12,720 nucleotides of DNA from a virus (Duplodnaviria > Heunggongvirae > Uroviricota > Caudoviricetes), in the IMG/VR virus record IMGVR_UViG_2690316152_000008, positions 1 through 12,720 of that record. One strand, given 5' to 3'. Made by a program: the position numbers and the translations under genes. Position 1 is the first letter of the stretch; each line of letters starts with the position of its first letter. The notes under the pieces are model-generated. The model had not been told where the DNA came from. It saw only the letters and a program-made list of their open reading frames with translations, and ran no database searches. This document shows positions 1 through 12,720 of the stretch, piece by piece.

Positions 1-40
1 GATTTACAGCGGCAAGTTTTACTTCAAATGAATGTTTCAT
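1..40 (-). CDS. 5' end of an unidentified CDS running off the window edge (N-terminus MKHSFEVKLAAVN...)
   Basis: ATG at 40..38 on minus strand, preceded by AAGGTG 6 nt upstream; open to position 1. Only 13 codons visible. Alternative reading: the 3' end of a plus-strand gene stopping at 40-42 (TAA). Cannot be resolved from this window. Confidence 0.25.
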   Translation of the reverse strand, partial: MKHSFEVKLAAVN

Positions 41-92
41 AAACTGCACCTTCAGATGTCAGATTATGTCCAACATTTGGGGTGCAGTTCAA

Positions 93-157
93 TCAGCGTC
101 GCATCAGGCATCCTGCTCAAATGCCGGATGCGGCGTAAACGCCTTATCCTGCCTACA
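93..157. repeat. REP (repetitive extragenic palindromic) element pair downstream of cpxA
   Basis: GCCGGATGCGGCGTAAACGCCTTATCCTGCCTACA at 123-157 matches the enterobacterial REP consensus; an inverted partial copy (GCGTCGCATCAGGCATCCTGC) lies at 96-116. A further hairpin GCGGAGTTTAACTCCGC at 160-176 overlaps the cpxA stop codon. Confidence 0.7.
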
Positions 158-166
158 ATGCGGAGT

Positions 167-1540
167 TTAACTCCGCTTATACAGCGGCAACCAAATCACC
201 AGCCGTAAACCGCCCAGCGGGCTGTCTTCTGCTTTAACCCAGCCGCGATGCTGCTGAATGGCGGTTTCAACAATCGCCAGCCCCAAACCTGTACCGCCAG
301 ATTCACGATCGCGTGCTTCATCGGTACGATAGAACGGACGGAAAATCTGTTCGCGATCTTCCGGGCTAACGCCAGGACCATCGTCGTCCACCGTAATGGT
401 GATACCGTCTTTATCTACCGCAAAGCCCACTTCAATCTTCGTATGGGAATAACGCAGAGCATTACGAACAATGTTTTCCAGCGCACTTTCCAGGGCGTTC
501 GGATTGCCGTACAGCGGCCACGGCCCAGGAGGGAAGTTAACTGTCAACGACTTGCCCATTTGCTCGGCTTCGAACGCCGCGTTATCCAGCACTTCACTCC
601 ACAACTGATTGGCTTTGATGGTCTCGCTAACCAGCGCGTTTTTTTGCTGATTACGTGACATCACCAACAGGTCGTTAATCATGCTGTCCAGACGTTGCGC
701 TTCGGTTTCAATACGCTCCAGTTCCTTGCTTTCACCGCTACGACGGCGCAGTAACGCCGTACCCAGTTGTAGACGCGTCAGCGGGGTGCGCAGCTCGTGA
801 GAGATATCAGAAAGCAGACGCTGCTGAGAGGTCATCATGCGCTCCAGCGCGGTGACCATCTGGTTAAAACTGGCACCAGCGGCAAGGAATTCCTGTGGCC
901 CCGCTTCAAGTTCCGGGTGCTGGCGTAAGTTTCCCTGGGCAACTTCATCGGCAGCGTTTTTCAGCTTACGCGCCGGTTTTGCCAGACTCCAGGCCAACCA
1001 CAACAGCAGCGGCGTACTGACCAACATGGTGACAATCAGCAGTAATAGCGGGCGGTCAAACAGTAAGTTAATGAAATCGGATTGAGAACTGCTGGCCGGA
1101 CGAATCAGATAAAGTTGGTAATTATCTTCGCCATCACGCACGGAGAACGGACCGACCAGTTCCACGCGGCCATACTTTTTCTTCTGCGGATGATCGGCGT
1201 TATCGGCCTGACCAATAAAGTTACGAATGATCTGCATTTCGCTGCGTTCAGCGCCGATCACGCGGCCTTCGGTGGTCACCAATAACAAACGCTGTCCTGG
1301 CGGTGCCCACTTATCAATCGCCCGGAACAGACGCCGCCACCACATTAAATCGTTGGGCGGATCGTTCGCCAGCTCCGCTTCGACATGCTGCTCAATCATC
1401 AGACCCTGACGCTGTTCGCTATCCAGAAGCTCGGTCATCTGGCGTGAATCGAGCTTGGGTAACATCAAAACCAACATCAACACCAGCGCCAGCGTCAGCC
1501 AGAAGATGGCGAAGATGCGCGCGGTTAAGCTGCCTATCAT
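167..1540 (-). CDS. cpxA: Two-component sensor histidine kinase CpxA (457 aa)
   Basis: ORF translation has two N-terminal TM segments, an H-box (SHELRTPLTRL) and G-box (GGTGLGLAIV); length and sequence recognised as enterobacterial CpxA; 4-bp ATGA overlap with the upstream response regulator gene. Confidence 0.97.
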   Translation of the reverse strand: MIGSLTARIFAIFWLTLALVLMLVLMLPKLDSRQMTELLDSEQRQGLMIEQHVEAELANDPPNDLMWWRRLFRAIDKWAPPGQRLLLVTTEGRVIGAERSEMQIIRNFIGQADNADHPQKKKYGRVELVGPFSVRDGEDNYQLYLIRPASSSQSDFINLLFDRPLLLLIVTMLVSTPLLLWLAWSLAKPARKLKNAADEVAQGNLRQHPELEAGPQEFLAAGASFNQMVTALERMMTSQQRLLSDISHELRTPLTRLQLGTALLRRRSGESKELERIETEAQRLDSMINDLLVMSRNQQKNALVSETIKANQLWSEVLDNAAFEAEQMGKSLTVNFPPGPWPLYGNPNALESALENIVRNALRYSHTKIEVGFAVDKDGITITVDDDGPGVSPEDREQIFRPFYRTDEARDRESGGTGLGLAIVETAIQQHRGWVKAEDSPLGGLRLVIWLPLYKRS

Positions 1541-2235
1541 GAAGCAGAAACCATCAGATAGCCGCGACCACGCAAGGTTTTAAACCATGGGTGACCATCT
1601 TTACGATCCGGCAGTTTACGACGCAGGTTGGAAATGTGCATATCGATAGCGCGGTCGAAGGGCGTCAGGCGTTTGCCCAGCACTTCCTGGCTTAAATGTT
1701 CACGGGAAACCACCTGACCCAGATGCTGTGCCAGCAAATAGAGCAGGGTAAACTCAGTGCCGGTTAACTCCAGCGTTTGCCCGTCGAAGCTGGCTTCCTG
1801 ACGGCCTGGATTCAGCACTAAGGCATCAACTTCAAGCGTCGGTGAACCGTTGTCGTTGTTTTGCTGTTGCTCGCTCCAGTGCGAACGGCGCAGGATCGCG
1901 CGAATACGTGCCACCAGCTCACGATCATTAAACGGTTTCGGGAGATAGTCATCTGCGCCCAGCTCAAGGCCGAGAACGCGATCAAGTTCACTGCCGCGCG
2001 CCGTCAACATAATGACAGGCGTCTGGTGTGTCTGGCGAAGTGCTTTTAATGTGTCGATACCATTTTTCTTCGGCATCATTACATCAAGCAAAAGTAAATC
2101 AATGCTGTCGTCCAGAAGATCAAGCGCCTGTTCCCCATCGTGGGCAACAATCACGTTGAAGCCTTCCATCTCGAGCAGCTCCTTTAATAGGGAAGTCAGC
2201 TCTCGGTCATCATCAACTAACAGGATTTTATTCAT
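1537..2235 (-). CDS. cpxR: OmpR-family response regulator CpxR (232 aa)
   Basis: Receiver domain (LLVDDD...LLLLDVMMP...K) plus winged-helix C-terminus; recognised as CpxR; GGAGG SD upstream of the ATG at 2235; operon partner of cpxA. Confidence 0.97.
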   Translation of the reverse strand: MNKILLVDDDRELTSLLKELLEMEGFNVIVAHDGEQALDLLDDSIDLLLLDVMMPKKNGIDTLKALRQTHQTPVIMLTARGSELDRVLGLELGADDYLPKPFNDRELVARIRAILRRSHWSEQQQNNDNGSPTLEVDALVLNPGRQEASFDGQTLELTGTEFTLLYLLAQHLGQVVSREHLSQEVLGKRLTPFDRAIDMHISNLRRKLPDRKDGHPWFKTLRGRGYLMVSAS

Positions 2236-2384
2236 TGTTTAAATACCTCCGAGGCAGAAATTACGTCATCAGACGTCGCTAATCCATGACTTTACGTTGT
2301 TTTACACCCCCTGACGCATGTTTGCAGCCTGAATCGTAAACTCTCTATCGTTGAATCGCGACAGAAAGATTTTGGGAGCAAATG
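2236..2384. promoter_or_regulatory. Divergent cpxRA / cpxP promoter region with a CpxR box
   Basis: Minus-strand GTAAA-ACAAC-GTAAA (plus 2291-2305, TTTACGTTGTTTTAC) matches the CpxR consensus GTAAA-N5-GTAAA; a second half-site GTAAA lies at 2336-2340; sits between divergent cpxR and cpxP starts. Confidence 0.75.
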
Positions 2385-2885
2385 ATGCGCATAGTTACCG
2401 CTGCCGTCATGGCCTCAACGCTGGCAGTCAGTTCATTAAGCCACGCTGCTGAAGTCGGTTCAGGCGATAACTGGCATCCGGGTGAAGAACTTACGCAGCG
2501 CAGTACGCAGAGCCATATGTTCGACGGCATAAGTTTAACCGAACATCAGCGTCAGCAGATGCGAGATCTTATGCAACAGGCCCGGCACGAACAGCCTCCT
2601 GTTAATGTTAGCGAACTGGAGACAATGCATCGCCTTGTCACCGCAGAAAATTTTGATGAAAACGCTGTGCGCGCACAGGCAGAAAAAATGGCGAACGAGC
2701 AAATAGCTCGTCAGGTTGAGATGGCAAAAGTCCGCAACCAAATGTATCGCCTGTTAACGCCGGAGCAGCAAGCGGTTTTAAACGAGAAACATCAACAACG
2801 AATGGAGCAGTTGCGCGACGTGACGCAATGGCAAAAAAGTTCATCGTTGAAGCTATTGAGTAGTAGCAACTCACGTTCCCAGTAG
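2385..2885 (+). CDS. cpxP: Periplasmic Cpx-pathway protein CpxP (166 aa)
   Basis: Signal peptide ([21 protein letters not shown]) and LTxxQ-type repeats ([18 protein letters not shown]). The track ORF starts at tandem ATG 2382; the second ATG (2385) has better spacing from GGGAG (2374-2378) and gives a 166-aa product. Confidence 0.93.
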
Positions 2886-2925
2886 TAAACCCTGTTTTCC
2901 TTGCCATAGACACCATCCCTGTCTT

Positions 2926-2952
2926 CCCCCACATGATGTGGGGGTTTTTTTT
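2926..2952 (+). terminator. Rho-independent terminator of cpxP
   Basis: Perfect inverted repeat CCCCCACAT-g-ATGTGGGGG (2926-2944) followed by T8 (2945-2952). Confidence 0.8.
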
Positions 2953-3037
2953 ATCAATTACTTACATGCAATCAAAAGTAAAAACAGGTACTTATCGAAA
3001 GCTGTAAGGGGTTGGAGCGGTTTCAAAATTTCTTGAG

Positions 3038-3058
3038 TGTGGACACTATGTGGACACT
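3038..3058. repeat. Tandem direct repeat TGTGGACACT x2 beside the integrase 3' end; candidate arm-type Int binding sites of the attachment region
   Basis: TGTGGACACT at 3038-3047 and 3049-3058 (11-bp register), 14 bp from the int stop codon. Interpretation as arm sites is by analogy to lambdoid/P2 att architecture. Confidence 0.4.
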
Positions 3059-3071
3059 CAGAGGGGGAAAT

Positions 3072-4052
3072 TTATAACGTCACTCCGCCTTTTAGTGGAT
3101 TCAGAGCGACGGCATTTTGCAGATAGTCAGGCGCAAGGTGCGCATAGGCCATCGTCTGCTGAATGCTCGCATGTCCCAGAATCTGTTGCAGTGCGATTAT
3201 ATTGCCCCCATTCATCATGAAATGGCTTGCGAATGTATGCCGCAGGATGTGGGTTGCCTGATTGGGTGGTATATCAGGTTTCACTCTGCGTAAAATCCCG
3301 CAAAATTTCTCATAATCAACTTTGAATAATTTGGCGCTGGCCTCCTCTTTAACTTTTTTCTCCAGTTCCTCAGAAATCGGCACGGTTCGCTTTTTACCGT
3401 TTTTGGTTTTCAGGAAGGTAACCCTGCAATTTGTAATCTGTGCTGGTTTTAGCGTGGCAACTTCCGTCTATCTTCCTCCAGTGCTCAGACATAAAAGCGC
3501 GACAAGTAAGTCATCACCAGCCAAAACATTTAACAGTTTTTCGATTTCTGCTTTTTCCAGGAACGTCATTTCAGGGTTGGCCTCCGCCAGTGGCGGCAGT
3601 CCGTGAATTGGGTGTTGCCCAGAAAATTCATCCAATTGAATTAATTTTGTGAACATGCCGGATAATCGGTACATGTCACGGTTTATCGTTGCGGCACTGA
3701 TACCATCACGTAGTCGCATGGAACGATAATCCATCAAAGCCCTTTTGCTCATCCTGCTCACTGGTATATCACCTATGCCGCTGATGGTTTTGAGTAGATG
3801 ATTAAACTCTTTTGTTCCATGCTCGTGGTTTTGCCCGTGATATTTCCACCAGATGTCCAGCAACTCACTCAAAGTCCGGCGGTCTGCTCGCTGGCCTCCC
3901 CATTCTTTCTGACTGGCATTGGCGATTGTGTATCGCTCAAATGCTAGTGCTTCAGCTTTTCTTTCGAATTTCCTGCGGATGCGTTTTCCGTCGCGACCGC
4001 GAGGTCTAATGTCCACTTCATAGCGACCATCATCGAGCTTCTTAATTGCCAT
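3072..4052 (-). pseudogene. int: P2-type tyrosine integrase interrupted by one in-frame amber codon (TAG at 3470..3468)
   Basis: Track ORFs 3468..4082 and 3072..3383 are in the same frame. Read-through translation gives ...LCLSTGGR*TEVATLK...KTKNGKKRTVPISEEL...HILRHTFASHFMMNGG...LGHASIQQTMAYAH, i.e. box I Arg, HxxR and catalytic Tyr of a tyrosine recombinase. The stop sits where Trp is usual (STGxRW); plus-strand 3468-3470 is CTA. Likely true start is ATG 4052 (GGAGG 8 nt upstream, N-terminus MAIKKLDDGRYEV). Confidence 0.8.
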
Positions 4053-4121
4053 AAGAAAGCCCTCCGGCGCTGTATTCACCATCTTGGTAGCAAATGGTGA
4101 AAATGTAATCTTTATATAGAG

Positions 4122-4415
4122 TTAGCCAATCCTTTTTGCGGAGTGGTTGGACTCTGTTGACTCTGGCCCAATGTGCGCGAGAGCCGGTGCGATTTGTCCT
4201 GCGTCCGGCGCGGTTTTATCTGTCATAAGCCATAGAGCATATTTTTGGAATGTGGGATGCATAGTGATTTTTAGCAAAGCTGTGCCACCGGGTTCAAAGT
4301 TTCCTCCTTCATATTTTTTAAGTGTGCTTAGCGGTAACTCTATGATTTCACAGAATTTTGATTGGCTTAGCCCTTCAGCCTCACGCAAGGCCTTAATCTT
4401 TTCGCTTAATTTCAT
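4122..4415 (-). CDS. C: Prophage immunity repressor, P2 C-like (97 aa)
   Basis: Small protein with an N-terminal helix-turn-helix-like segment (LSQSKFCEIIELPLSTLKKYE), immediately upstream of and co-directional with int, divergent from cox, as in P2 C-int. Symbol assigned by synteny and size, not by search. Confidence 0.75.
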   Translation of the reverse strand: MKLSEKIKALREAEGLSQSKFCEIIELPLSTLKKYEGGNFEPGGTALLKITMHPTFQKYALWLMTDKTAPDAGQIAPALAHIGPESTESNHSAKRIG

Positions 4416-4536
4416 TTGACATGGTGCCTATATAGGGACTAAATTCCCTCAAAACTGGAACCTATATAGGTTCCATTGATTTGAGAATAAACCAGCGTCT
4501 AAACGGTTTTGAGTGGTTTAGAAAGGGCTGGATCCT
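4416..4536. promoter_or_regulatory. Lysis-lysogeny switch region with candidate early promoter and operator palindromes
   Basis: TTGACA at 4416-4421 with TAAATT at 4440-4445 (18-bp spacer) on the plus strand; 10-bp palindrome CCTATATAGG at 4427-4436 and again at 4461-4470 (extended to an 18-bp perfect palindrome GGAACCTATATAGGTTCC, 4457-4474); related CCATATATGG at 4546-4555. Confidence 0.5.
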
Positions 4537-4824
4537 ATGAGGGTACCATATATGGACGCTGAAAATTATGTGATTCAGTATCCGCTTGATGCGGTTCATG
4601 TGGATAAATTTGCTGATTTATTAGGGAAGCCAAAGACAGCCGTCAGTGAAATGGTGAAGGCAAATAAATTACCAATTATTGAATTGCGTGATCCTTGCAA
4701 ACCGAAGGCTCGTGCCGGTGAAAAATGGGTTTTCATTCCTGAGTTTAATCGCGCTGTACGTGAGGCGTTTTATAACCGACCGGTTGAACAGCGTGATGCA
4801 TGGCTTTTGTGGATGGGGTTGTGA
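4537..4824 (+). CDS. cox: Cox-like excisionase / switch regulator (95 aa; 90 aa if started at ATG 4552)
   Basis: First gene of the rightward early operon, divergent from the repressor; small basic protein ending ...RDAWLLWMGL. Start ambiguous: ATG 4537 or ATG 4552 (GAGGG 9 nt upstream). Confidence 0.7.
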   Translation: MRVPYMDAENYVIQYPLDAVHVDKFADLLGKPKTAVSEMVKANKLPIIELRDPCKPKARAGEKWVFIPEFNRAVREAFYNRPVEQRDAWLLWMGL

Positions 4825-4826
4825 TT

Positions 4827-4997
4827 ATGAATGAGCCGCGTTGTATTGCTCAGTTACTGCGTAACGAAAGCCCCAGGGCGATTGACTTCACCATCACCCA
4901 CGGGAAGGGTCGCAAGGGAATCATTATCCGCACCAAAAAACAGAGTCCGTTAAAAAAGGCTCTGACCTTTCTGAAAAGCCGGAGGGTCTGGAAATGA
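4827..4997 (+). CDS. Small early-operon protein (56 aa), in the position of P2 orf78
   Basis: ATG at 4827 lies 3 nt after the cox stop; the track's longer version starts at 4800 inside cox; stop overlaps the next gene's start (ATGA at 4994-4997). Confidence 0.45.
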   Translation: MNEPRCIAQLLRNESPRAIDFTITHGKGRKGIIIRTKKQSPLKKALTFLKSRRVWK

Positions 4998-5494
4998 CAG
5001 TGATGACGCTCAATCTCGTTGAAAAACAGCCAGCAGCTATGCGCCGGATAATTGGTAAGCATCTGGCCGTCCCTCGCTGGCAGGAAACATGCGATTATTA
5101 TAATCAGATGATGGAACGCGAACGGCTAACGGTTTGCTTCCATGCGCAGTTAAAACAGCGTCACGCAACGATGCGTTTTGAAGAAATGAACGACGTCGAA
5201 CGTGAACGGCTGGTTTGTGCAATTGATGAACTGCGTGGGGCATTCTCAAAACGCCGTCAGGTCGGTGCAAGTGAGTATGCATATATTAGCTTTTTAACTG
5301 TCAGTCAGCGCCGTACTTTATTTATGCATGCGGGATTGACTGAAAAAGAATTCAACCAGCCATACTGGCGAATTAATGAAGAGTCATGTTACTGGCGTGA
5401 TGCTTTATTTCGTGCGTTACGTGAATTATTCAGTCTGTTTGAGTATGCGCCGACAATTCTGACGTCGGTAAAACCAGAGCAATATCTGCATTAA
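4994..5494 (+). CDS. Early replication protein, P2 gpB-like by position and length (166 aa)
   Basis: GGAGGG SD at 4981-4986, 7 nt before the ATG; same length as P2 B and same place in the early operon. Assignment by synteny only. Confidence 0.7.
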   Translation: MTVMTLNLVEKQPAAMRRIIGKHLAVPRWQETCDYYNQMMERERLTVCFHAQLKQRHATMRFEEMNDVERERLVCAIDELRGAFSKRRQVGASEYAYISFLTVSQRRTLFMHAGLTEKEFNQPYWRINEESCYWRDALFRALRELFSLFEYAPTILTSVKPEQYLH

Positions 5495-5557
5495 GTAATT
5501 AACCAGAGTTTTTAACGCACTTAATCGTGCGGGGCTTCTTTTTGCCTGGAGAAAGTC

Positions 5558-5782
5558 ATGCATACAGTTTCTGAAAATCAGTGCGGTATATACGCATTAC
5601 TGCTGCAACAGGCCAGAACTGAAGCACAGGCCGACGCTGCGACGCGCTTTTCTTCTCATCTTGACGCCATGATTCGCCACATCACAAAGGCGGAGTTATC
5701 CCGCGTGGAGATAGTCGAGCTGCTCAGTCAGGAGTCGGAAAAATTTCACAATATCGGATTGTCTCGCGGGGAGGTGCTTTGA
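5558..5782 (+). CDS. Hypothetical early protein (74 aa)
   Basis: ATG with GGAGAAAG upstream; stop TGA overlaps the next start by 1 nt (TGATG). Confidence 0.6.
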
Positions 5783-6084
5783 TGTCCTGTTCTCGTTCAG
5801 TTGTATTACTGAATAACGCCTTAAAAATCGCCGTTATGGAGAATGGCGATTTGTCTCTTATTCAACTTAGGTTTGATAAAGAAAAACGCGAAATAACTGA
5901 ATCTGTTTTCGCGATTTATCAGAACGAATTAAATCTCCTGTCTGATGTGGTCAATTTACTTGTTAAACGCGCTGTATTTCATAAGCAAATTTCATCCGTG
6001 GATGAACTGACAAAATTAACGACAGAAATCGCCAGCTATTGCGCTGATGAATTTAAGAAGCTGAACGACAAAAGGAGCTGGTAA
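5782..6084 (+). CDS. Hypothetical early protein (100 aa from ATG 5782)
   Basis: GGGAGGTG at 5768-5775, 6 nt before ATG 5782; the track start at 5779 is a TTG one codon upstream; stop TAA overlaps the next ATG (TAATG at 6082-6086). Confidence 0.6.
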   Translation: MSCSRSVVLLNNALKIAVMENGDLSLIQLRFDKEKREITESVFAIYQNELNLLSDVVNLLVKRAVFHKQISSVDELTKLTTEIASYCADEFKKLNDKRSW

Positions 6085-6308
6085 TGCCGGACAACGTAGA
6101 TTTTATTCAGGAACAACAGGCTGAATTACTGGAGCGCCAGATTAATGCGGCAAGGGTAAAACATTGCGGTGCTTCTGCGCTGGTTTGCGAAGAGTGTGAC
6201 GCGCCAATACCTGCTGCCCGTCGTGCGGCTTATCCGTCAGCCACGCGTTGTGTTTCCTGTCAGTCAGTCTTTGAAGCAAAAAACAAACATTACCGGAGAA
6301 CGGCATGA
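6084..6308 (+). CDS. TraR/DksA-family C4 zinc-finger protein (74 aa)
   Basis: CEEC-x17-CVSC spacing in the translation (C-x2-C-x17-C-x2-C) is typical of the phage/plasmid TraR-DksA zinc finger; AAGGAG 6 nt upstream; ATGA overlap with the next gene. Confidence 0.75.
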   Translation: MPDNVDFIQEQQAELLERQINAARVKHCGASALVCEECDAPIPAARRAAYPSATRCVSCQSVFEAKNKHYRRTA

Positions 6309-6580
6309 GTATTCGTATTGAAATTGGCGAACGTTATGTCGTTACCAGTGACAGCTTTCAGTTTATTCTCCACGAGAAAAAGAGAGCTGAAAGCGGTAAA
6401 AACGCCGGTCAGGAATGGCTGGCGGTGGTTGGTTATTACCCGAAATTAAGCCAGCTCGTTTCCGGCCTGATGCATCACGATATTCTGACCGGAAGCGCAA
6501 AGTCTTTTGCTGATTTAAACGCGCAGGTTGAGCAACTCAGCAAGCGTTGTTCAGAGGCTTTTGGCTCATATGGCCGTTAA
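6305..6580 (+). CDS. Hypothetical early protein (91 aa)
   Basis: GGAG 6 nt upstream of ATG 6305; stop TAA 6578-6580 overlaps the start region of gene A. Confidence 0.6.
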   Translation: MSIRIEIGERYVVTSDSFQFILHEKKRAESGKNAGQEWLAVVGYYPKLSQLVSGLMHHDILTGSAKSFADLNAQVEQLSKRCSEAFGSYGR

Positions 6581-8846
6581 AGCCTCCGGGCGTTTTGTCC
6601 CTCCGTCAGCATTTGCCGCAGGCACCGGTGAGACGTTTACCGGTGCTTATGCATGGAACGCGCCACGCGAGGCCGTCGGGCGAGAAAGACCTCTTACACG
6701 TGACGAGATGCGTCAGGTGCAAGGTGTTTTATCCACGATTAACCGCCTGCCTTACTTTTTGCGCTCGCTGTTTACTTCACGCTATGACTACATCCGGAGC
6801 AATAAAAGTCCGGTACACGGGTTTTATTTCCTCACATCCACTTTTCAGCGTCGTTTATGGCCGCGTATTGAGCGTGTGAATCAGCGCCATGAAATGAACA
6901 CCGACGCGTCGTTGCTGTTTCTGGCAGAGCGTGACCACTATGCGCGCCTGCCAGGAATGAATGACAAGGAGCTGAAAAAGTTTGCCGCCCGTATCTCATC
7001 GCAGCTTTTCATGATGTATGAGGAACTCTGCGATGCCTGGGTGGATGCGCATGGCGAAAAAGAATCGCTGTTTACGGATGAGGCGCAGGCTCACCTGTAT
7101 GGTCATGTTGCTGGCGCTGCACGTGCTTTCAATATTTCCCCTCTCTACTGGAAAAAATACCGTAAAGGACAGATGACCACGAGGCAGGCATATTCTGCCA
7201 TTGCCCGCCTGTTTAACGATGAGTGGTGGATTAGTCAGCTTAAAGGCCAGCGTATGCGCTGGCATGAGGCGTTACTGATTGCTGTCGGGGAGGTCAATAA
7301 AGACCGTTCACCTTATGCCAGTAAACATGCCATTCGTGATGTGCGTGCGCGCCGCCAGGCAAATCTGGAATTTCTTAAATCGTGTGACCTTGAAAACAGG
7401 GAAACCGGCGAGCGCATCGACCTTATCAGTAAGGTGATGGGCAGTATTTCTAATCCTGAAATTCGCCGGATGGAGCTGATGAACACCATTGCCGGTATTG
7501 AGCGTTACGCCGCATCAGAGGGTGATGTGGGGATGTTTATCACGCTTACCGCGCCGTCAAAGTATCACCCGACACGTCAGGTTGGAAAAGGCGAAAATAA
7601 AACCGTCCAGCTTAATCACGGCTGGAATGATGAGGCATTTAATCCAAAGGATGCGCAGCGTTATCTCTGTCGTATCTGGAGCCTGATGCGCACGGCATTC
7701 AAGGATAATGATTTACAGGTCTACGGTTTGCGAGTCGTCGAGCCACACCACGACGGAACGCCGCACTGGCATATGATGCTTTTTTGTAATCTACGCCAGC
7801 GTAACCAGATTATCGAAATCATGCGTCGCTATGCGCTCAAAGAGGATGGCGACGAAAGAGGAGCCGCGCGAAACCGTTTTCAGGCAAAACACCTTAACCG
7901 GGGCGGTGCTGCGGGATATATCGCGAAATACATTTCAAAAAATATCGACGGCTATGCACTGGATGGTCAGCTCGATAACGATACCGGCAGACCGCTGAAA
8001 GATACTGCGGCGGCTGTTACCGCATGGGCGTCAACGTGGCGCATCCCGCAATTTAAAACGGTTGGCCTGCCGACAATGGGAGCTTACCGTGAGCTACGTA
8101 AATTGCCTCGCGGCGTCAGCATTGCTGATGAATTTGACGAACGCGTGGAGGCTGCACGCGCCGCCGCAGACAGTGGCGATTTTGCGCTGTATATCAGCGC
8201 GCAGGGCGGGGCAAATGTCCCGCGCGATTGTCAGACTGTCAGGGTCGCTCGTAGCCCGTCGGATGACGTTAACGAATACGAGGAAGAAGTCGAGAGAGTG
8301 GTCGGCATTTACGCGCCGCATCTCGGCGCGCGTCATATTCATATCACCAGAACGACGGACTGGCGCATTGTGCCGAAAGTTCCGGTCGTTGAGCCTTTGA
8401 CTTTAAAAAGCGGCATCGCCGCGCCTCGGAGTCCTGTCAATAACTGTGGAAAGCTCACCGGCGGTAATACTTCGTTACCGGCTCCCTCGCCTTCTGAGCA
8501 CGCCGCAGCAGTGCTTAATCTGGTTGATGACGGTGTTATCGAATGGAATGACCCGGAGGTCGTGAGGACGCTCAGGGGTGCATTAAAGCACGGCCTGAAA
8601 ATACCAAATCGTCAGCAAAGAAACGGAAGCCCGTTAAAACCACATGAAATAGCACCGTCGGCCAGGCTGACCCGGTCGGAACGATTGCAAATTACCCGTA
8701 TCCGCGTTGATCTCGCTCAGAACGGTATCAGGCCGCAACGATGGGAGCTTGAGGCGCTGGCGCGTGGCGCGACCGTAAATTATGACGGGAAACCTTTCAC
8801 TTATCAGGTCGCTGATGATTGGCCGGGATTTTTGTTACCCATTTGA
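6570..8846 (+). CDS. A: Rolling-circle replication initiator endonuclease, P2 gpA family (758 aa from ATG 6570)
   Basis: Translation contains an HUH-type motif (TPHWHMMLF) and paired tyrosines spaced by 3 residues (GYIAKYISK), the hallmarks of RCR initiators of the P2 A type; large size; last gene of the early operon. The track start at 6528 is a TTG; in-frame ATG 6570 gives a P2-A-like length. Confidence 0.9.
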   Translation: MAVKASGRFVPPSAFAAGTGETFTGAYAWNAPREAVGRERPLTRDEMRQVQGVLSTINRLPYFLRSLFTSRYDYIRSNKSPVHGFYFLTSTFQRRLWPRIERVNQRHEMNTDASLLFLAERDHYARLPGMNDKELKKFAARISSQLFMMYEELCDAWVDAHGEKESLFTDEAQAHLYGHVAGAARAFNISPLYWKKYRKGQMTTRQAYSAIARLFNDEWWISQLKGQRMRWHEALLIAVGEVNKDRSPYASKHAIRDVRARRQANLEFLKSCDLENRETGERIDLISKVMGSISNPEIRRMELMNTIAGIERYAASEGDVGMFITLTAPSKYHPTRQVGKGENKTVQLNHGWNDEAFNPKDAQRYLCRIWSLMRTAFKDNDLQVYGLRVVEPHHDGTPHWHMMLFCNLRQRNQIIEIMRRYALKEDGDERGAARNRFQAKHLNRGGAAGYIAKYISKNIDGYALDGQLDNDTGRPLKDTAAAVTAWASTWRIPQFKTVGLPTMGAYRELRKLPRGVSIADEFDERVEAARAAADSGDFALYISAQGGANVPRDCQTVRVARSPSDDVNEYEEEVERVVGIYAPHLGARHIHITRTTDWRIVPKVPVVEPLTLKSGIAAPRSPVNNCGKLTGGNTSLPAPSPSEHAAAVLNLVDDGVIEWNDPEVVRTLRGALKHGLKIPNRQQRNGSPLKPHEIAPSARLTRSERLQITRIRVDLAQNGIRPQRWELEALARGATVNYDGKPFTYQVADDWPGFLLPI

Positions 8847-9106
8847 GTAAAAATACAGCGTGATTTTATATGTCTTTGAATGGATTATGCGAAGCACCTC
8901 TAAGGTAGATGAGGAGCAATAGCGTGTTGAATCAGAAGGCTAAATTGTATTGAATCGTTAGCATGTAATTGAAGGCAGCTATTTGATTCGAGTCATAAAA
9001 GAGCATCTATTTCGGTTAATAAAACCATTGCGAGTGACTTTATGTCGAAGCATAATTCATCTCGAGCGAAGTCTTGCTAGTCTTTCATCGGATTGATGAC
9101 GGGCGC

Positions 9107-9136
9107 AAAAAAACCACCCTGGCAGGTGGTTTTTTT
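9107..9136. terminator. Bidirectional rho-independent terminator
   Basis: A7 (9107-9113), stem ACCACC / GGTGGT (9113-9118 / 9125-9130) with loop CTGGCA, then T7 (9130-9136). Works for the plus-strand early transcript and for the minus-strand small ORF. Confidence 0.7.
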
Positions 9137-9148
9137 GTTTGAAGCATA

Positions 9149-9262
9149 CTAAAGAAAAATACTTACATGGATATTACTGACGTTTACTGACAAACCACTC
9201 GGACTACCATATGGATAGCCAAAGAGGGCCAGAACGAGAATGCAGTAATAGCACTTCTTCAT
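9149..9262 (-). CDS. Small hydrophobic protein, 37 aa (MKKCYYCILVLALFGYPYGSPSGLSVNVSNIHVSIFL); candidate small membrane peptide
   Basis: Not in the ORF track (<60 aa). Perfect AGGAGG (plus 9267-9272) 4 nt upstream of ATG 9262..9260; stop TAG at 9151..9149; the bidirectional terminator follows 13 nt downstream. No homology claimed. Confidence 0.3.
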   Translation of the reverse strand: MKKCYYCILVLALFGYPYGSPSGLSVNVSNIHVSIFL

Positions 9263-9918
9263 ATCGCCTCCTGTAAGCAGAGGGCAATTTCCGCCGATAT
9301 ATGCGCTTCTAAGGCGGAGTGACTATTGAGCGAAGTCTTGCCCTGAAATAATGCTCTGTTTAAACGCAAAGTGATCTGGCATATCACCGAACAGAGGACC
9401 TGAACAACACAATATATAGTATGTCGTTGTTTCTGGTTGCATTTTATGTTGTGTAATACTGGTTTTGCATCAAGGATGTTTGAGCTTTTTTTGATATAGC
9501 TCAAAGTAAAAAGCAGAGACTACGGATGATAAGGTCTTGAAAGCAATGTAAATTTTTTAAAGTTGTGAGTGGCTAGAAATGCACAGTTTCAATATGGCGG
9601 ATTTAAACAAGTAATTAAAAATAGCGCCATAAATTCCAATAAAATCATTATGTTGCGTTTTCTGTGGAAGCTGCGGTGACTCTGAAATTTTCTTTTAGTG
9701 TCGCTGAGGTTTAACAACTCGCTGCGCAAGTAGTTAGTGTTTTTTTAACTCAATGTTCTGATTTATAAGGTTTTTTATAAATCGTGGGCTGATTGCGCGT
9801 ATTCATCTCGTGTTATCAGCAAAGATAAGCGCTATATGCAGAACTGAATGCATATATGATGTCGAAAATGTTATGGGAAAACGTGGATTAGTGTTATAGT
9901 AATGGCTGAAAAACAGCC

Positions 9919-9947
9919 TTGACATAAAATAACAACTGTGATATGGC
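9919..9947 (+). promoter_or_regulatory. Candidate sigma-70 promoter for the ImmA-like gene
   Basis: Perfect -35 TTGACA at 9919-9924; weak -10 candidates ATATGG / TATGGC at 9941-9947 (16-17 bp spacer); 37-45 nt upstream of the ATG. Confidence 0.4.
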
Positions 9948-9983
9948 TGTGCATACTTAACTTTTTTAACGTAGGAGGCAACC

Positions 9984-10469
9984 ATGAGCTATGCAGCTAA
10001 AAAACTGCTTGACCGCTATTGGGATCGCCGACTACCTGTCGATCCGTTTAAGCTTGCTAAAGCGTGGGGTGCTCGTGTTGAAGCACTTGAGGAATCGGCT
10101 TATAACAACGATGGGTTAAGCGGTCTGGCTGTCATCAAAAAGGGTGTCCATAGGATTTATTTTGATTCTAGTGAACATTCTAATCGTCAACGTTTTACTG
10201 TTGCACACGAGTTAGGTCATCATGTGCTGGGGCATACCCAGGACGGAGAGTACCATCGGGATAATGTCGGGAATTATTCAACAGGTGCTCGTGATTACCG
10301 TGAGGTTGAAGCAAACAAGTTTGCTGCTGAGTTGTTAATGCCTGAGTCTGCTATACGTCAATTGGTATCCAGAGAAGGTATTGATAGCACTTTGAGATTA
10401 GCAAGCATCTTTAATGTATCAGAAGCCGCTATGCATTGGCGCTTAAAGAGCTTAGGAATGGCTTATTAA
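9984..10469 (+). CDS. ImmA/IrrE-family (peptidase M78 / COG2856-like) zinc metallopeptidase, 161 aa
   Basis: HEXXH motif in TVAHELGHHVLGH with a downstream Glu-rich segment (EVEANKFAAELLMPE), typical of ImmA/IrrE-type proteases; AGGAGG at 9973-9978, 5 nt before the ATG. No adjacent HTH partner gene. Confidence 0.85.
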   Translation: MSYAAKKLLDRYWDRRLPVDPFKLAKAWGARVEALEESAYNNDGLSGLAVIKKGVHRIYFDSSEHSNRQRFTVAHELGHHVLGHTQDGEYHRDNVGNYSTGARDYREVEANKFAAELLMPESAIRQLVSREGIDSTLRLASIFNVSEAAMHWRLKSLGMAY

Positions 10470-10497
10470 TTAGCCTTTAACTTTTAACCTGTTTAAA

Positions 10498-10535
10498 ATC
10501 ACCTTTACGTTTGTACATGTAAGGGTGATTTTTTT
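10498..10535 (+). terminator. Strong hairpin plus T-run between the peptidase and membrane-protein genes; terminator/attenuator that also sequesters the downstream SD
   Basis: Stem ATCACCTTTA (10498-10507) pairs with TAAGGGTGAT (10520-10529), 10 bp with one G.U, 12-nt loop, then T6 (10530-10535) directly abutting ATG 10536. The right arm TAAGGGTGAT is itself the SD-like sequence of the next gene. Confidence 0.55.
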
Positions 10536-11135
10536 ATGGCTGATATTGATTTATCTGGACAGTCCCCAGAGCAAGGAACCACTCCTAAGGGCGATTTAGA
10601 TCCTGATATCCTTATAAGGCGAGATAGACGGGATGGTATAGAGCGTAGAAGTATGCGATTAGTGCTCTCTGCCGTTGTGCTTTGTTTTGCTTGTACATTT
10701 CTATGGCAGGGGCTTAACTTTGCTTTGGCTGTTGGAAATGGCTTGCTGGAAGCGAAAAGCAGTATTGCCACAGCGATAACACAAAAAGTAGATGCACAAA
10801 CTTGTGTTTCAGCAGAAAAATGTTCTGCTTTATCTGCGGATCCGAAGATGGCTGATGAGAGGATAACACCATCTTCAGACACTAATAAAGTTAGAAAATC
10901 TATTTCTGGTTTATCCACCGATTGGTTATCGGCCAGTTCTCTAATAGCTATTGTTGCATTCATCCTTGGTGTGGGTTTAACTTTGCTTTTGACTCTTCTT
11001 AAATCAGCATTTCAACACCCGACAGATAAAGACTTTAGAACAAAGTCGACATCTAATACTATTGAGTTGGCCACGCCAATCAGTGAATTAATAATTGGTG
11101 TTCTGAATATAATTAAAGACAAACTATCTAAGTAA
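10536..11135 (+). CDS. Two-transmembrane-segment membrane protein of unknown function (199 aa)
   Basis: Charged N-terminus (RRDRRDGIERR) followed by hydrophobic helices LVLSAVVLCFACTFLWQGLNFALAV and LIAIVAFILGVGLTLLLTLL; ends at a convergent terminator. Overlapping minus-strand ORF 10505..10963 judged spurious. Confidence 0.7.
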   Translation: MADIDLSGQSPEQGTTPKGDLDPDILIRRDRRDGIERRSMRLVLSAVVLCFACTFLWQGLNFALAVGNGLLEAKSSIATAITQKVDAQTCVSAEKCSALSADPKMADERITPSSDTNKVRKSISGLSTDWLSASSLIAIVAFILGVGLTLLLTLLKSAFQHPTDKDFRTKSTSNTIELATPISELIIGVLNIIKDKLSK

Positions 11136-11176
11136 AGCATTAGTTGTGATTTTTTATTGGTTTTAGTGATAATACA

Positions 11177-11210
11177 TCTCCAGTACTTATTGTTACTGGA
11201 GAGTATTTTT
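11177..11210. terminator. Convergent terminator hairpin between the membrane-protein gene and the 313-aa gene
   Basis: 9-bp stem TCTCCAGTA / TACTGGAGA (11177-11185 / 11194-11202), 8-nt loop, followed by GTATTTTT on the plus strand; 16 nt from the minus-strand gene stop. Confidence 0.55.
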
Positions 11211-11217
11211 AGTCGTT

Positions 11218-12159
11218 TTATATTTTTAATGTTAGTGAATGATATTCACGAGAGTTCACGTTCGATGTGATGTAATCGGGGGCGTTAACACCAAGAATCG
11301 CAACGAGCAATCGGCAAATTAAAGCCTGCATTTGTTGTAATATGTCATCTCCATATTGATAATTGTTAATAGTGGTAAAGCCAAGTGGTTGACCATGAAA
11401 CATAGCTTCATGAAAGTTTTCATTGCGGATGTTTGTAATGTTTTTTTTGCCTGTAACCCATGATGGTCGTGGTATGCCATAAGTTTTGCAGATCCACTTC
11501 AAGCGCCTGGAGTGATTTAGAGTCTTTTCTGTACACTTGTTCTTTTCTGCCCATGTTAAAGCAAAGCAACTATCCAGTGCCATATAAAGATACTGGAATT
11601 TTTCGAAGCTAAGGTATTGTGGGTTTTGGGATAAAAATAGTGCATGCACTATTGCTGCGATATTTATTGGTGCGTGTTTGGTTTTTTTCTCGCTAGACAT
11701 GTATTTGAGTGCTAATTCTATAACCTCTTTTTCAGAGCACTTGACCAGAATAAAGTCAGTTAATTTGCTGGGTTTTATTGGGGTTGCGTCTAAAAAACCG
11801 GCATCAGTAGTTGTTAATCTTATCCCTTTGAAAAAAGACAGACACCACACAGCAAAATTGAGAGTTTCTAGTGAAGATGTATTTTTTAATTTTAGTGAGT
11901 GTGTTTTGGGTAAGCCAAATACTCGTTGGCTAAAAGGCATTGTGGATATGCCTCCATTGAGGTTATATACTTCTTGGTTTCCTGGGTATATCCAACCGTT
12001 AATAACATTTCTGTGATTGTTTATAAGATTTGTTTTTTCCGCTAGACCGGGTAAAGTAAGTAAAGAAAAATCATCAGTTTCAACGTTAACGTCTACTGGA
12101 TAGTATCCAAACTCAGCTTCAATATCATTGGATTGCTGTTCGTCAACTTTACCTTGCAT
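11218..12159 (-). CDS. 313-aa protein of unknown function with a C-terminal R-N-x3-H (HEPN-like) motif; candidate abortive-infection effector
   Basis: Long AT-rich ORF; GGAG 6 nt upstream of ATG 12159..12157; motif IRNENFHEAMFHG near the C-terminus matches the HEPN R-[NHQ]-x3-H signature. Family not recognised. Confidence 0.8.
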   Translation of the reverse strand: MQGKVDEQQSNDIEAEFGYYPVDVNVETDDFSLLTLPGLAEKTNLINNHRNVINGWIYPGNQEVYNLNGGISTMPFSQRVFGLPKTHSLKLKNTSSLETLNFAVWCLSFFKGIRLTTTDAGFLDATPIKPSKLTDFILVKCSEKEVIELALKYMSSEKKTKHAPINIAAIVHALFLSQNPQYLSFEKFQYLYMALDSCFALTWAEKNKCTEKTLNHSRRLKWICKTYGIPRPSWVTGKKNITNIRNENFHEAMFHGQPLGFTTINNYQYGDDILQQMQALICRLLVAILGVNAPDYITSNVNSREYHSLTLKI

Positions 12160-12186
12160 ACATTGCTCCGGTCAAAAATAGGCTAG

Positions 12187-12216
12187 ATAATTCTCGTAAG
12201 CCTATCATGTTCGCAA
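12187..12216 (-). promoter_or_regulatory. Candidate promoter for the 313-aa gene
   Basis: Minus-strand TTGCGA (plus 12216..12211) and AATTAT (plus 12192..12187) with 18-bp spacer, about 30 nt upstream of the start codon; weak match. Confidence 0.3.
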
Positions 12217-12396
12217 AGTATCCATACCTGTGGATTTTGTAAATTTAAGTTGATTTGTCATTAAATAAGCCGTGCATGCAACAAGTGAATGTTTTTGCAT
12301 GCGTCGGGGATGCCCGTTCCGGCTGCTTGCGGTCAGAGCTGGTGCGGATCCATAGTATCTAAGCAACTGCATTAAAACCGCCCTATGAAGCGGGCG

Positions 12397-12415
12397 GGCG
12401 AGGCGGGGAAAGCAC
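12397..12415. other. P2/186/P4-type cos site (19-nt cohesive-end sequence GGCGAGGCGGGGAAAGCAC)
   Basis: Exact 19-mer at 12397-12415, embedded in a GC-rich region with GGTGCGG-type repeats, between the accessory island and the portal-like gene. Confidence 0.8.
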
Positions 12416-12556
12416 TGCGCGCTGGCGGTGGTGCGGATTTTATTTTTTCAGCGTCTGAGCGCGTCGTGACGGCGTTTAGTCTGCCCGTTGGGGGTTGGTG
12501 TGTCTGCGGGATGTTTTGTGCGGTGGTGAGCGTGTGAGGGCGTGATGACGGGGTGT

Positions 12557-12578
12557 AAAAAAGCCGCCCGCAGGCGGC
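12557..12578 (-). terminator. Rho-independent terminator of the portal-like gene
   Basis: On the minus strand GCCGCC-TGCG-GGCGGC followed by T6 (plus A6 at 12557-12562), 5 nt after the stop codon. Confidence 0.7.
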
Positions 12579-12583
12579 GATGT

Positions 12584-12720
12584 TCAGCCGTTGTCTGTGT
12601 CCAGTGAGTAGTTTTTAAAGCGGATAACCTCCTGACCGAGCCAGCCGTTTATTTCCCGAATCCTGTCCTGTAACGGGATAAGCTCATTGCGGACAAAGAC
12701 CTTTGCCACTTTCTCAATAT
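12584..12720 (-). CDS. 3' end of a capsid portal-like gene (P2 Q position), continuing beyond the window
   Basis: Open frame from the window edge to stop TGA (plus 12584-12586), C-terminus ...RIREINGWLGQEVIRFKNYSLDTDNG; its 3' end faces cos as P2 Q does. Assignment by synteny only. Confidence 0.55.
   Translation of the reverse strand, partial: IEKVAKVFVRNELIPLQDRIREINGWLGQEVIRFKNYSLDTDNG

Follow-up and report, generated by a model that had tools for sequence, protein, structure and literature searches.

Several genes of phage T4, namely I-TevI, I-TevII, I-TevIII, segB, mobE, e, and soc, carry hairpins that sequester their ribosome-binding site (RBS) (PMC2988022). We describe here a comparable hairpin in IMG/VR virus record IMGVR_UViG_2690316152_000008, of which positions 1 to 12,720, the whole stretch of DNA that was analysed and hereafter called the window, include a two-gene cassette made up of immA, which codes for an ImmA/IrrE-type metalloprotease, and a gene for a 199-amino-acid (aa) membrane protein, with the hairpin lying between the two. 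The T4 hairpins are like the cassette hairpin in that they are very stable, bury a consensus Shine-Dalgarno (SD) sequence about 8 nucleotides (nt) before the AUG, and leave read-through from upstream untranslated (PMC2988022). They differ in that their release is known, there being a late promoter inside or beside the hairpin, whereas in the cassette there are only hints of a promoter at the foot of the hairpin (p ~0.01, and confounded), and in that the T4 hairpins are not also terminators that abut the AUG. IS10/Tn10 reportedly shields its transposase from outside transcription by 'fold-back inhibition', as Davis, Simons and Kleckner are said to have found in 1985. There too, transcripts that start upstream carry a segment complementary to the start region and are silent, while transcripts from IS10's own promoter do not have this segment, but the IS10 element lies at the edge of a mobile element, whereas the cassette hairpin lies between two genes and has a U-tract. 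The messenger RNAs (mRNAs) of the type I toxins hok, tisB, dinQ, and zorO are translationally inert until they are processed. They share with the arrangement proposed here that the mRNA codes for a membrane protein, has its SD locked in structure, and is translated after an inhibitory 5' segment is removed, but these toxins are 20-50 aa long and not 199 aa, and the inhibitory element in the cassette is a local terminator hairpin and not a long-range pairing. No antisense RNA was found at the cassette.

Two further systems resemble the terminator half of the arrangement. In the plasmid HicAB toxin-antitoxin operon an internal intrinsic terminator sets the ratio of the upstream to the downstream gene product, and as in the cassette a hairpin with a U-tract separates the genes of a two-gene module; that terminator is not described in the abstract as carrying the downstream SD, and the gene order and the proteins are unrelated (PMC11878559). 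In the Gifsy-1 prophage, RNA that reads through the IsrK terminator codes for a toxic product but is translationally inactive, and a specific RNA event is needed to activate it (PMC4825925). Unlike the cassette, where no trans-acting RNA is evident, the short terminated RNA of IsrK acts in trans on an upstream open reading frame (ORF). On the protein side, CapP and CapH regulate immune operons (PMC13228613). The cassette is like CapP/CapH and ImmA/ImmR in having a stand-alone ImmA/IrrE-type metalloprotease, which has a PADLOC capP match, and unlike them in having no XRE- or CapH-type partner, its conserved partner being a two-helix membrane protein. Thus the mechanism is of a known kind, represented by the T4 and IS10 silencers, HicAB, and IsrK, and the cassette itself is uncharacterised. 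The features of the cassette up to and including the membrane-protein gene are these:

9919-9924, + strand: TTGACA, candidate -35 hexamer of the immA promoter, at a fixed distance from the immA start in the closer loci (alignment)
9973-9978, + strand: AGGAGG, strong SD of immA (duplex with the 16S rRNA tail, -10.2 kcal/mol)
9984-10469, + strand: immA, coding for a 161-aa stand-alone ImmA/IrrE (Peptidase_M78) metalloprotease with an HExxH motif (Pfam, PADLOC, RefSeq)
10470-10494, + strand: unstructured A/U- and pyrimidine-rich spacer (RNAalifold gives no consensus structure)
10494-10499, + strand: TAAAAT, candidate -10-like hexamer, matching TATAAT at five of six bases, with five of its six bases belonging to the hairpin
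10495-10510, + strand: 5' arm of the hairpin, AAAATCACCTTTACGT, which resembles the 16S anti-SD (RNAfold, inverted repeat I3, conservation, covariation)
10511-10516, + strand: loop, TTGTAC (RNAfold)
10517-10532, + strand: 3' arm of the hairpin, ACATGTAAGGGTGATTTT (RNAfold, covariation)
10521-10529, + strand: SD of the membrane-protein gene, AAGGGTGAT, wholly within the 3' arm and fully paired
10529-10535, + strand: run of seven T's, the U-tract of the terminator-like element and also the spacer between SD and AUG (sequence)
10536-11135, + strand: gene for the 199-aa membrane protein, phrog_8096, function unknown

The explanation that we favor, with moderate confidence, is that the hairpin insulates the membrane-protein gene twice, by termination and by occlusion of the SD, with synthesis of the membrane protein uncoupled from that of ImmA and far lower. 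As a Rho-independent terminator the hairpin would most likely end a large share of the transcripts from the immA promoter, and it would give the immA mRNA a protective 3' end. On read-through transcripts the same stem would bury the strong SD (AAGGGUGAU) and ribosomes could not start; in some relatives the stem would bury the AUG as well. Productive translation would then require an RNA in which the 5' arm is absent, cut, or displaced.

The sequence of 10480-10539 is ...ctgtttAAAATCACCTTTACgtttgtacatGTAAGGGTGATTTTtttATGg. RNAfold of 10470-10560 (+ strand) gives a 16-base-pair (bp) helix, 10495-10510 with 10517-10532, closed by a 6-nt loop. These 91 nt have a minimum free energy of -23.6 kcal/mol (z = -3.69), a stability that 1 of 200 dinucleotide shuffles attains; the hairpin with short flanks (51 nt) folds at -18.4 kcal/mol, and the core minus the A4/U4 extension at -15.2 kcal/mol. 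The initial annotation, which had asked for such a fold as a check, described a 10-bp stem that begins 29 nt after the peptidase stop and a T-run that ends 1 nt before the ATG. The fold is stable and the hairpin is real, and the 29 nt are correct, counted from the immA stop codon (10467-10469) to the 10-bp core, whose first base is 10499. The stem is 16 bp and not 10 bp long, because it continues in inner C-G, G.U, and U-A pairs and in an outer A4/U4 extension, and the T-run (10529-10535) leads directly into the ATG at 10536, so that the adjacency stands and the difference of 1 nt is trivial. The stem has a single U.G wobble (10505/10524), and the fold of the minus strand has a mismatch at that position. 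With 14-nt arms that are 93% complementary, the hairpin ranks third in length among the short-range inverted repeats of the window's 12.7 kilobases (kb); only palindromes of the P2 immunity region rank above it, and the terminator after the replication endonuclease gene (gpA) is just below.

The hairpin was compared among 17 non-redundant enterobacterial loci whose membrane proteins are 44-63% identical. It is present in all 17 at the same distance from the ATG, with folding energies of -12.8 to -20.1 kcal/mol, and the intergenic length from immA to the membrane gene is constant (66-72 nt). A T-run of 6-8 T's is found in 16 of these homologues. The loops diverge in sequence and are 5-13 nt long, and the spacer 5' of the hairpin cannot be aligned between the two subgroups, while the lower 9 bp of the stem (AAATCACC/GGTGATTT) are invariant. 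Across the stem alignment 95.4% of cells hold paired bases, whereas sliding the 3' partners lowers the figure to 27-73%. Both sides have changed at three pairs, one being C-G in nine sequences and U-A in eight, another going from A-U to U.G in the window, and the third from U-A to C-G; the covariation score was reached by none of 500 shuffles. RNAalifold on 130 nt returned the hairpin helix and no other. The G.U wobbles in the window and in loci L013 and L140 are legal only in RNA of the + strand. By this pattern of substitutions the hairpin appears to function as a + strand RNA structure.

What we regard as the strongest evidence for the design comes from five deeper relatives, loci whose membrane proteins match the family profile with E = 1e-21 to 1e-43:

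L024 (Vibrio contig): stem AAGCCCUCA/UGAGGGCUU, then UUUAAUG
L119: stem AAAGCCACC/GGUGGCUUU, then UUUAUG
L120: stem GCCAC/GUGGC, then UUAUUAUG
L136 (Pseudoalteromonas P2-like phage ACA1, 277-1520): stem AGCCCUU/AAGGGCU, then UUUUUAUG
L140: stem GGCCAC/GUGGCU, then UUUUUUAUG

The stems of these five are unrelated in sequence and yet the layout is identical, with a G-rich SD-like run in the 3' arm and the end of the stem 0-4 nt from the AUG. Besides the stem of the window, six other stem sequences occupy the equivalent place in relatives. Since the combination of terminator shape and SD occlusion has been kept in the 17 homologues and re-created in the five deeper relatives, the comparison strongly suggests that it is under selection.

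The SD AAGGGTGAT is the sole SD-like element in the 22 nt upstream of the ATG at 10536, and the earlier statement that the right arm holds the only SD-like sequence of the membrane gene is thereby borne out. If free, it would pair with the 16S rRNA 3' tail at -10.2 kcal/mol, equal to the AGGAGG of immA. Opening the region from -15 to +5 costs 17.7 kcal/mol on read-through RNA, as compared with 7.8 kcal/mol for immA, and 4.6 kcal/mol on RNA that starts at 10506-10509. From the established dependence of translation on RBS hairpin stability (de Smit and van Duin), a lock of 17.7 kcal/mol implies near-silent translation of the membrane gene on read-through RNA. Because the hairpin persists in L021 and L120 despite a decayed U-tract, occlusion appears to be the more deeply conserved half of the design and the terminator form the less.

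As to the terminator form, an A-tract, a 13-bp core within the 16-bp stem, a 6-nt loop, and a U7 tract are all present, in agreement with the stem and T-run on which the initial annotation had based its terminator. A d'Aubenton-Carafa-type score, the values of which are rough, is positive for the hairpin and also for L009, L017, L024, and L119, and the homologous hairpin of ACA1 is listed as terminator-like by the terminator scan. The distal three to four U's of the run are unpaired and yet nearly invariant, and the run is pure U in 21 of the 23 sequences examined. From this anatomy we infer partial to substantial termination of immA-promoter transcripts at the hairpin; the protein ratio that would result, and the route by which the lock would be released, are likewise proposals.

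Several observations weigh against a hairpin that both terminates and occludes. The terminator scan of the window does not list it, a miss that probably arises because maximal extension of the stem uses up four of the T's. Only 4 of the 16 pairs are G-C and the stem is AU-rich, and the d'Aubenton-Carafa-type score of the hairpin is a marginal +12, where the cpxP terminator scores +52 and the one after gpA +20. The U-tract is degenerate in L021 (UUUUAAUG) and in L120 (UUAUUAUG) with the hairpin retained. Within the enterobacterial group covariation amounts to three pairs only, the lower 9 bp being fixed, and L025, a true family member, has a 30-nt AT-rich gap with no obvious hairpin, as judged by eye and not by folding. 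Finally, a lock of about 15-18 kcal/mol without a visible release would make the gene essentially silent, which clashes with the purifying selection on the protein.

The scan result, the AU-rich stem with its marginal score, and the SD-bearing hairpins that have outlived their U-tracts in L021 and L120 would all be expected if the stem were a translational lock only, setting a very low ratio of membrane protein to ImmA on one bicistronic mRNA with no useful termination, in which case the U-run would be an A/U-rich spacer between SD and AUG that also pairs with the A-tract. We consider this improbable: the run stays pure U although its distal U's are unpaired, a U5-U7 tract comes after a GC-rich stem of textbook form in the deeper classes, where the scan calls one hairpin a terminator, and a weaker SD would be a simpler path to low expression. 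The opposite simplification, that this is an ordinary immA terminator and the overlap with the SD is incidental to tight packing, fits the terminator-like form, and any terminator that abuts a start codon must hold the SD in its G-rich 3' arm. However, the U-run lies 0-2 nt from the AUG in seven sequence-distinct classes, although there are 25-45 nt of free, non-conserved spacer upstream, and since space is not limiting the overlap looks selected; furthermore, the SD is strong in the enterobacterial classes (-10.2 kcal/mol in the window and -9.4 kcal/mol in L017). An ordinary terminator is therefore very unlikely. Least probable of all, to the point of being hardly tenable, is a palindrome that acts at the DNA level, as the operator of a dimeric regulator or as a cruciform. 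The invariance of the lower 9 bp of both arms among the enterobacterial loci would suit it, but the arms lie anywhere from 5 to 13 nt apart, which is a misfit to a fixed dimer footprint, a symmetric DNA site would be mismatched at the G.U wobbles, the arm sequences are entirely different in the deeper relatives, and the cassette codes for no DNA-binding protein. The variable loop and the different arms led us to reject a palindromic protein operator. A terminator of the minus strand was likewise rejected, given the wobble mismatches, the presence of only four T's, and the fact that the hairpin follows the immA-membrane junction whatever lies downstream. An RNA thermometer of the fourU or ROSE type was rejected as well, the helix being too stable (16 pairs, only one of them a wobble, and ~-18 kcal/mol at 37°C), and so was coupling through the terminating immA ribosome, whose stop codon at 25 nt from the foot of the stem is too far away by an estimate from the usual footprint.

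If the hairpin both terminates and occludes, the question is how the membrane protein is made at all. Because the protein is under purifying selection and its SD is strong, a release mechanism should exist. The initial annotation had the protein made only on read-through with the hairpin opened, but no opening mechanism is visible, RNAalifold gives no alternative structure, and the promoter-like elements at the foot offer another route. A riboswitch or attenuator was rejected because one helix only, and no alternative fold, was found (RNAalifold, 130 nt), Rfam gave no match near the hairpin at E <= 1 in 8800-12720, and no upstream ORF runs across the 5' arm, the immA frame past its stop reaching another stop at 10485-10487 (by reading). 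We see two tentative routes of equal weight, initiation from an internal promoter at the hairpin foot and processing, or another opener acting in trans, on read-through RNA; that the protein is made by mere leaky low-level expression seems to us a little less likely than either.

The internal promoter can be formulated as a filter on the origin of transcripts, which we regard as possible but doubtful. A weak sigma-70 promoter in the spacer would have its -10 element at the 5' foot of the hairpin or partly within it, as in T4 I-TevI, e, and soc and in IS10, and transcripts would start at about 10505-10508, inside the 5' arm, with the consequence that they would form no hairpin, would not be terminated, and would have a free SD. 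Transcripts from the immA promoter would be terminated and translationally dead, and the membrane protein would not come from read-through. Such a filter refines the dual role of the hairpin but contradicts the read-through route of the initial annotation. In its favor, a -10-like hexamer lies within -3 to +5 nt of the first base of the hairpin in every class (TAAAAT, TATAAA, TATCCT, TACAAT, TAATAT/TATAAA, TATAAT, and TAGAAT), and these hexamers give a combined shuffle p of ~0.01-0.02. Sigma-70-like sites called by the scan end at the foot in L119 (ATGGCA-18-TACAAT, 936-965, one of two sites called in the region) and in L140 (CTGACT-17-TAGAAT, 604-632, one of three), and transcription beginning 7 nt further on would start within the 5' arm. 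In subgroup 2 a 'TAT' ahead of the A-tract is invariant in nine of nine loci while its neighbors vary, and TTCCC(A/T) stands 17 nt upstream of it in six of the nine. RNA from 10506-10509 needs the 4.6 kcal/mol given above for opening instead of 17.7, a strong SD under a strong lock suggests a switch and not a throttle, and there is a precedent in the T4 late promoters, which are sited so that the transcripts lack the inhibitory arm (PMC2988022). Against it, the hexamer in the window is nearly all the hairpin's own A-tract (p = 0.4-0.5), the best -35 match in the window is three of six, and the scan called no promoter-like site in 10300-10536; TATAAA does not have the conserved final T and -35 matches are weak throughout. 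Moreover, in L024, L120, L136, and L140 the A/U-rich foot can form an outer helix by pairing with the U-run and AUG, which would explain its conservation without a promoter, and the shuffle test of the foot hexamers was designed after the pattern had been seen. A mimic of a T4 late promoter (TATAAATA), found in subgroup 2, was rejected because the motif is not common to the other classes.

A more ambitious proposal is that the hairpin is the trigger of a new abortive-infection or exclusion cassette of ImmA and the membrane protein, in which the effector is untranslatable until an event linked to infection removes or bypasses the 5' arm. The cue might be an RNA cut in the loop, which is rich in A and U, a global failure of termination, or transcription starting at the promoter-like element of the foot, and the RNA structure would turn this phage cue into effector synthesis while ImmA would act on protein. 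We hold this to be a long shot, and the role of the membrane protein as a toxic effector is a guess. If the protein is a lethal effector, the hairpin would be its safety catch, and mutation of the hairpin should be toxic or change phage resistance.

Outside this branch the arrangement is different. Downstream of distant stand-alone ImmA genes the hairpin is missing, and a small ORF with two transmembrane (TM) segments overlaps the stop codon of immA (as ATGA or TAATG, with gaps from -17 to +1). Loci with this overlap are L138 (Burkholderia P2-like phage Carl1, 422-1449), L030, L031, L035, L039, L044, L045, L070, L078, and L102. Their two-TM ORFs have weak profile similarity to the membrane protein and share its architecture, namely an N-terminal DLSG-like motif and a TM2 ending in ALLK/R-F-x-F, and the overlapping genes are presumably translationally coupled. 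The module of ImmA and a two-TM protein thus seems to be ancient and widespread, and since the distant ImmA loci have the overlapping ORF and no hairpin, the hairpin spacer is a derived feature of a gamma-proteobacterial branch, in which coupling was swapped for its opposite. The hairpin shows a deliberate uncoupling, within gamma-proteobacteria, of the two genes of a cassette that is rare and mobile, and the contrast between the uncoupled and the overlapping arrangement gives a handle on the function of the cassette. With seven independent stem sequences it is a clean natural case of one hairpin serving as terminator and as ribosome-site lock, useful for the prediction of terminators and RBSs and for the design of synthetic insulators.

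The product of immA matches Pfam PF06114 (E = 3.8e-21) and PADLOC capP (E = 1.1e-30), and its HELGHH motif is conserved in the homologues. The -35 hexamer TTGACA was not called by the promoter scan of the window and was identified from the sequence. The context of the SD, TAGGAGGC(A/T)ACCATG, is near-invariant in 14 of 15 aligned sequences, the divergent one being that of the Vibrio locus L024. Directly 5' of the -35 hexamer is a palindrome, GGCTGAAAAACAGCC (9903-9918), which is kept in the closer relatives with variable arm spacing; it is not a LexA box. In the paper on ACA1 the ImmA homologue is annotated as an 'antirepressor' homologous to phage 186 Tum (PMC10612066). We did not adopt this label, as phage 186 was absent from the tblastn matches (E <= 1e-5) of the window's ImmA in the phage collection. 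A link between the cassette and the SOS operon of 186, which occupies the same genome position, is possible.

The membrane protein has hydrophobic segments at about residues 43-65 and 130-155 and a disordered N-terminus, and it belongs to no family in Pfam, NCBIfam, or PADLOC. The AlphaFold model is of low confidence (pLDDT 63, pTM 0.40) and consists of two long helices and a C-terminal amphipathic helix. The family is small; in a set of 1.84 billion representatives it makes up 53 clusters at 50% identity. Homologues with as little as about 45% identity retain the N-terminal motif MAD-x-DLSG and the motif D..ERR.MR, and because of this the ATG at 10536 can be taken as the true start. The TM2 motif AFILGVGLTL(L/I)LTLLK is near-invariant among the homologues, and by its sequence conservation the protein appears to be under clear purifying selection. 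In public records the gene is mis-started, either at an internal Met40 or at an ATG within the 3' arm of the hairpin, which gives an 'MVIFFM' extension when the T-run has eight T's; two entries are so extended. The mis-started entries are L139 (OU784750.1, 'Peduovirus P2', 3198-3677) and proteins P0004, P0021, and P0017-P0019, and the Met40 and 'MVIFFM...' starts are gene-calling artefacts. Hairpins of this kind are overlooked by gene callers and annotators.

In every locus fetched, a stand-alone ImmA gene of 161-164 aa is immediately 5' of the membrane gene, while the flanks vary: P2-like prophages, a prophage beside terminase genes, a phage P1-type tail-fibre neighborhood, RepL-encoding replicons, one of which is a Vibrio plasmid, a ParA/SopB-encoding contig, and an island of antirestriction genes. 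The pair was also found on Serratia chromosomes and on a Vibrio contig. Since the ImmA partner is constant while the flanking genes differ, ImmA and the membrane protein appear to form a mobile two-gene cassette. In PADLOC the only models that the ImmA protein matches are capP and RmrA, neither the membrane protein nor the 313-aa product of the gene downstream (see below) has a match, and the cassette corresponds to no described defence-system model there. A literature search on the two RefSeq protein accessions gave nothing. A profile scan of genome contigs yielded no confirmed relative with the membrane-protein alignment and only distant ImmA homologues (<=48% identity), informative for the overlapping gene arrangement alone, with the ImmA alignment; a further viral scan gave no new loci, and a metagenome scan gave mostly near-duplicates.

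The window is E. coli chromosome, with cpxA, cpxR, and cpxP followed by a P2-like (Peduovirus) prophage, the window part of which also encodes an integrase, C, and Cox. Its other features are:

167-1540, - strand: cpxA
1537-2235, - strand: cpxR
2382-2885, + strand: cpxP
6528-8846: replication endonuclease gpA, a prophage gene
11177-11202: hairpin that is terminator-like on both strands, between the convergent 199-aa and 313-aa genes (terminator scan)
11218-12159, - strand: gene for a hypothetical 313-aa protein, convergent to the 199-aa gene (RefSeq)

The G+C content drops from ~0.53 to 0.36-0.44 across ~8850 to ~12580, and because the portal is the next annotated phage gene past this region, the region is in the 'tin/old' position of P2, between the replication endonuclease gene A and the portal. 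This position is a hotspot of anti-phage systems according to Vassallo et al. (preprint 10.1101/2022.05.12.491691). Only three RefSeq genes are in it, those for the ImmA/IrrE metallo-endopeptidase, the hypothetical 199-aa protein, and the convergent hypothetical 313-aa protein. The stretch 9700-11300 is present in 50 of 5,426 complete E. coli genomes and is at least 99% identical in 47 of the 50. The 313-aa protein is phrog_5937 and has no match in Pfam, NCBIfam, or PADLOC; its gene is not linked to the pair of ImmA and membrane protein in other genomes, and it is probably a separate cargo of the hotspot, outside the cassette.

In the integrase gene (3072-4052, - strand) a nonsense mutation at 3469, where the window has T and NZ_AP045072 has C, changes Trp to a stop and breaks the ORF into pieces of 204 aa and 103 aa, and a prophage with the integrase split in this way may be unable to excise. 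Between gpA and immA, RefSeq annotates no gene in the 1.1 kb of 8850-9980. A weak RNAI-like Rfam match lies in this interval at 9105-9215 (- strand; 27.8 bits against a gathering score of 47), as does a hydrophobic 37-aa ORF, MKKCYYCILVLALFGYPYGSPSGLSVNVSNIHVSIFL, at 9149-9262 (- strand) with a GGAGG SD in front. A perfect bidirectional terminator, A7CCACC...GGTGGT7 (9106-9137), adjoins this ORF, which may encode a small membrane peptide or resemble a type I toxin gene.

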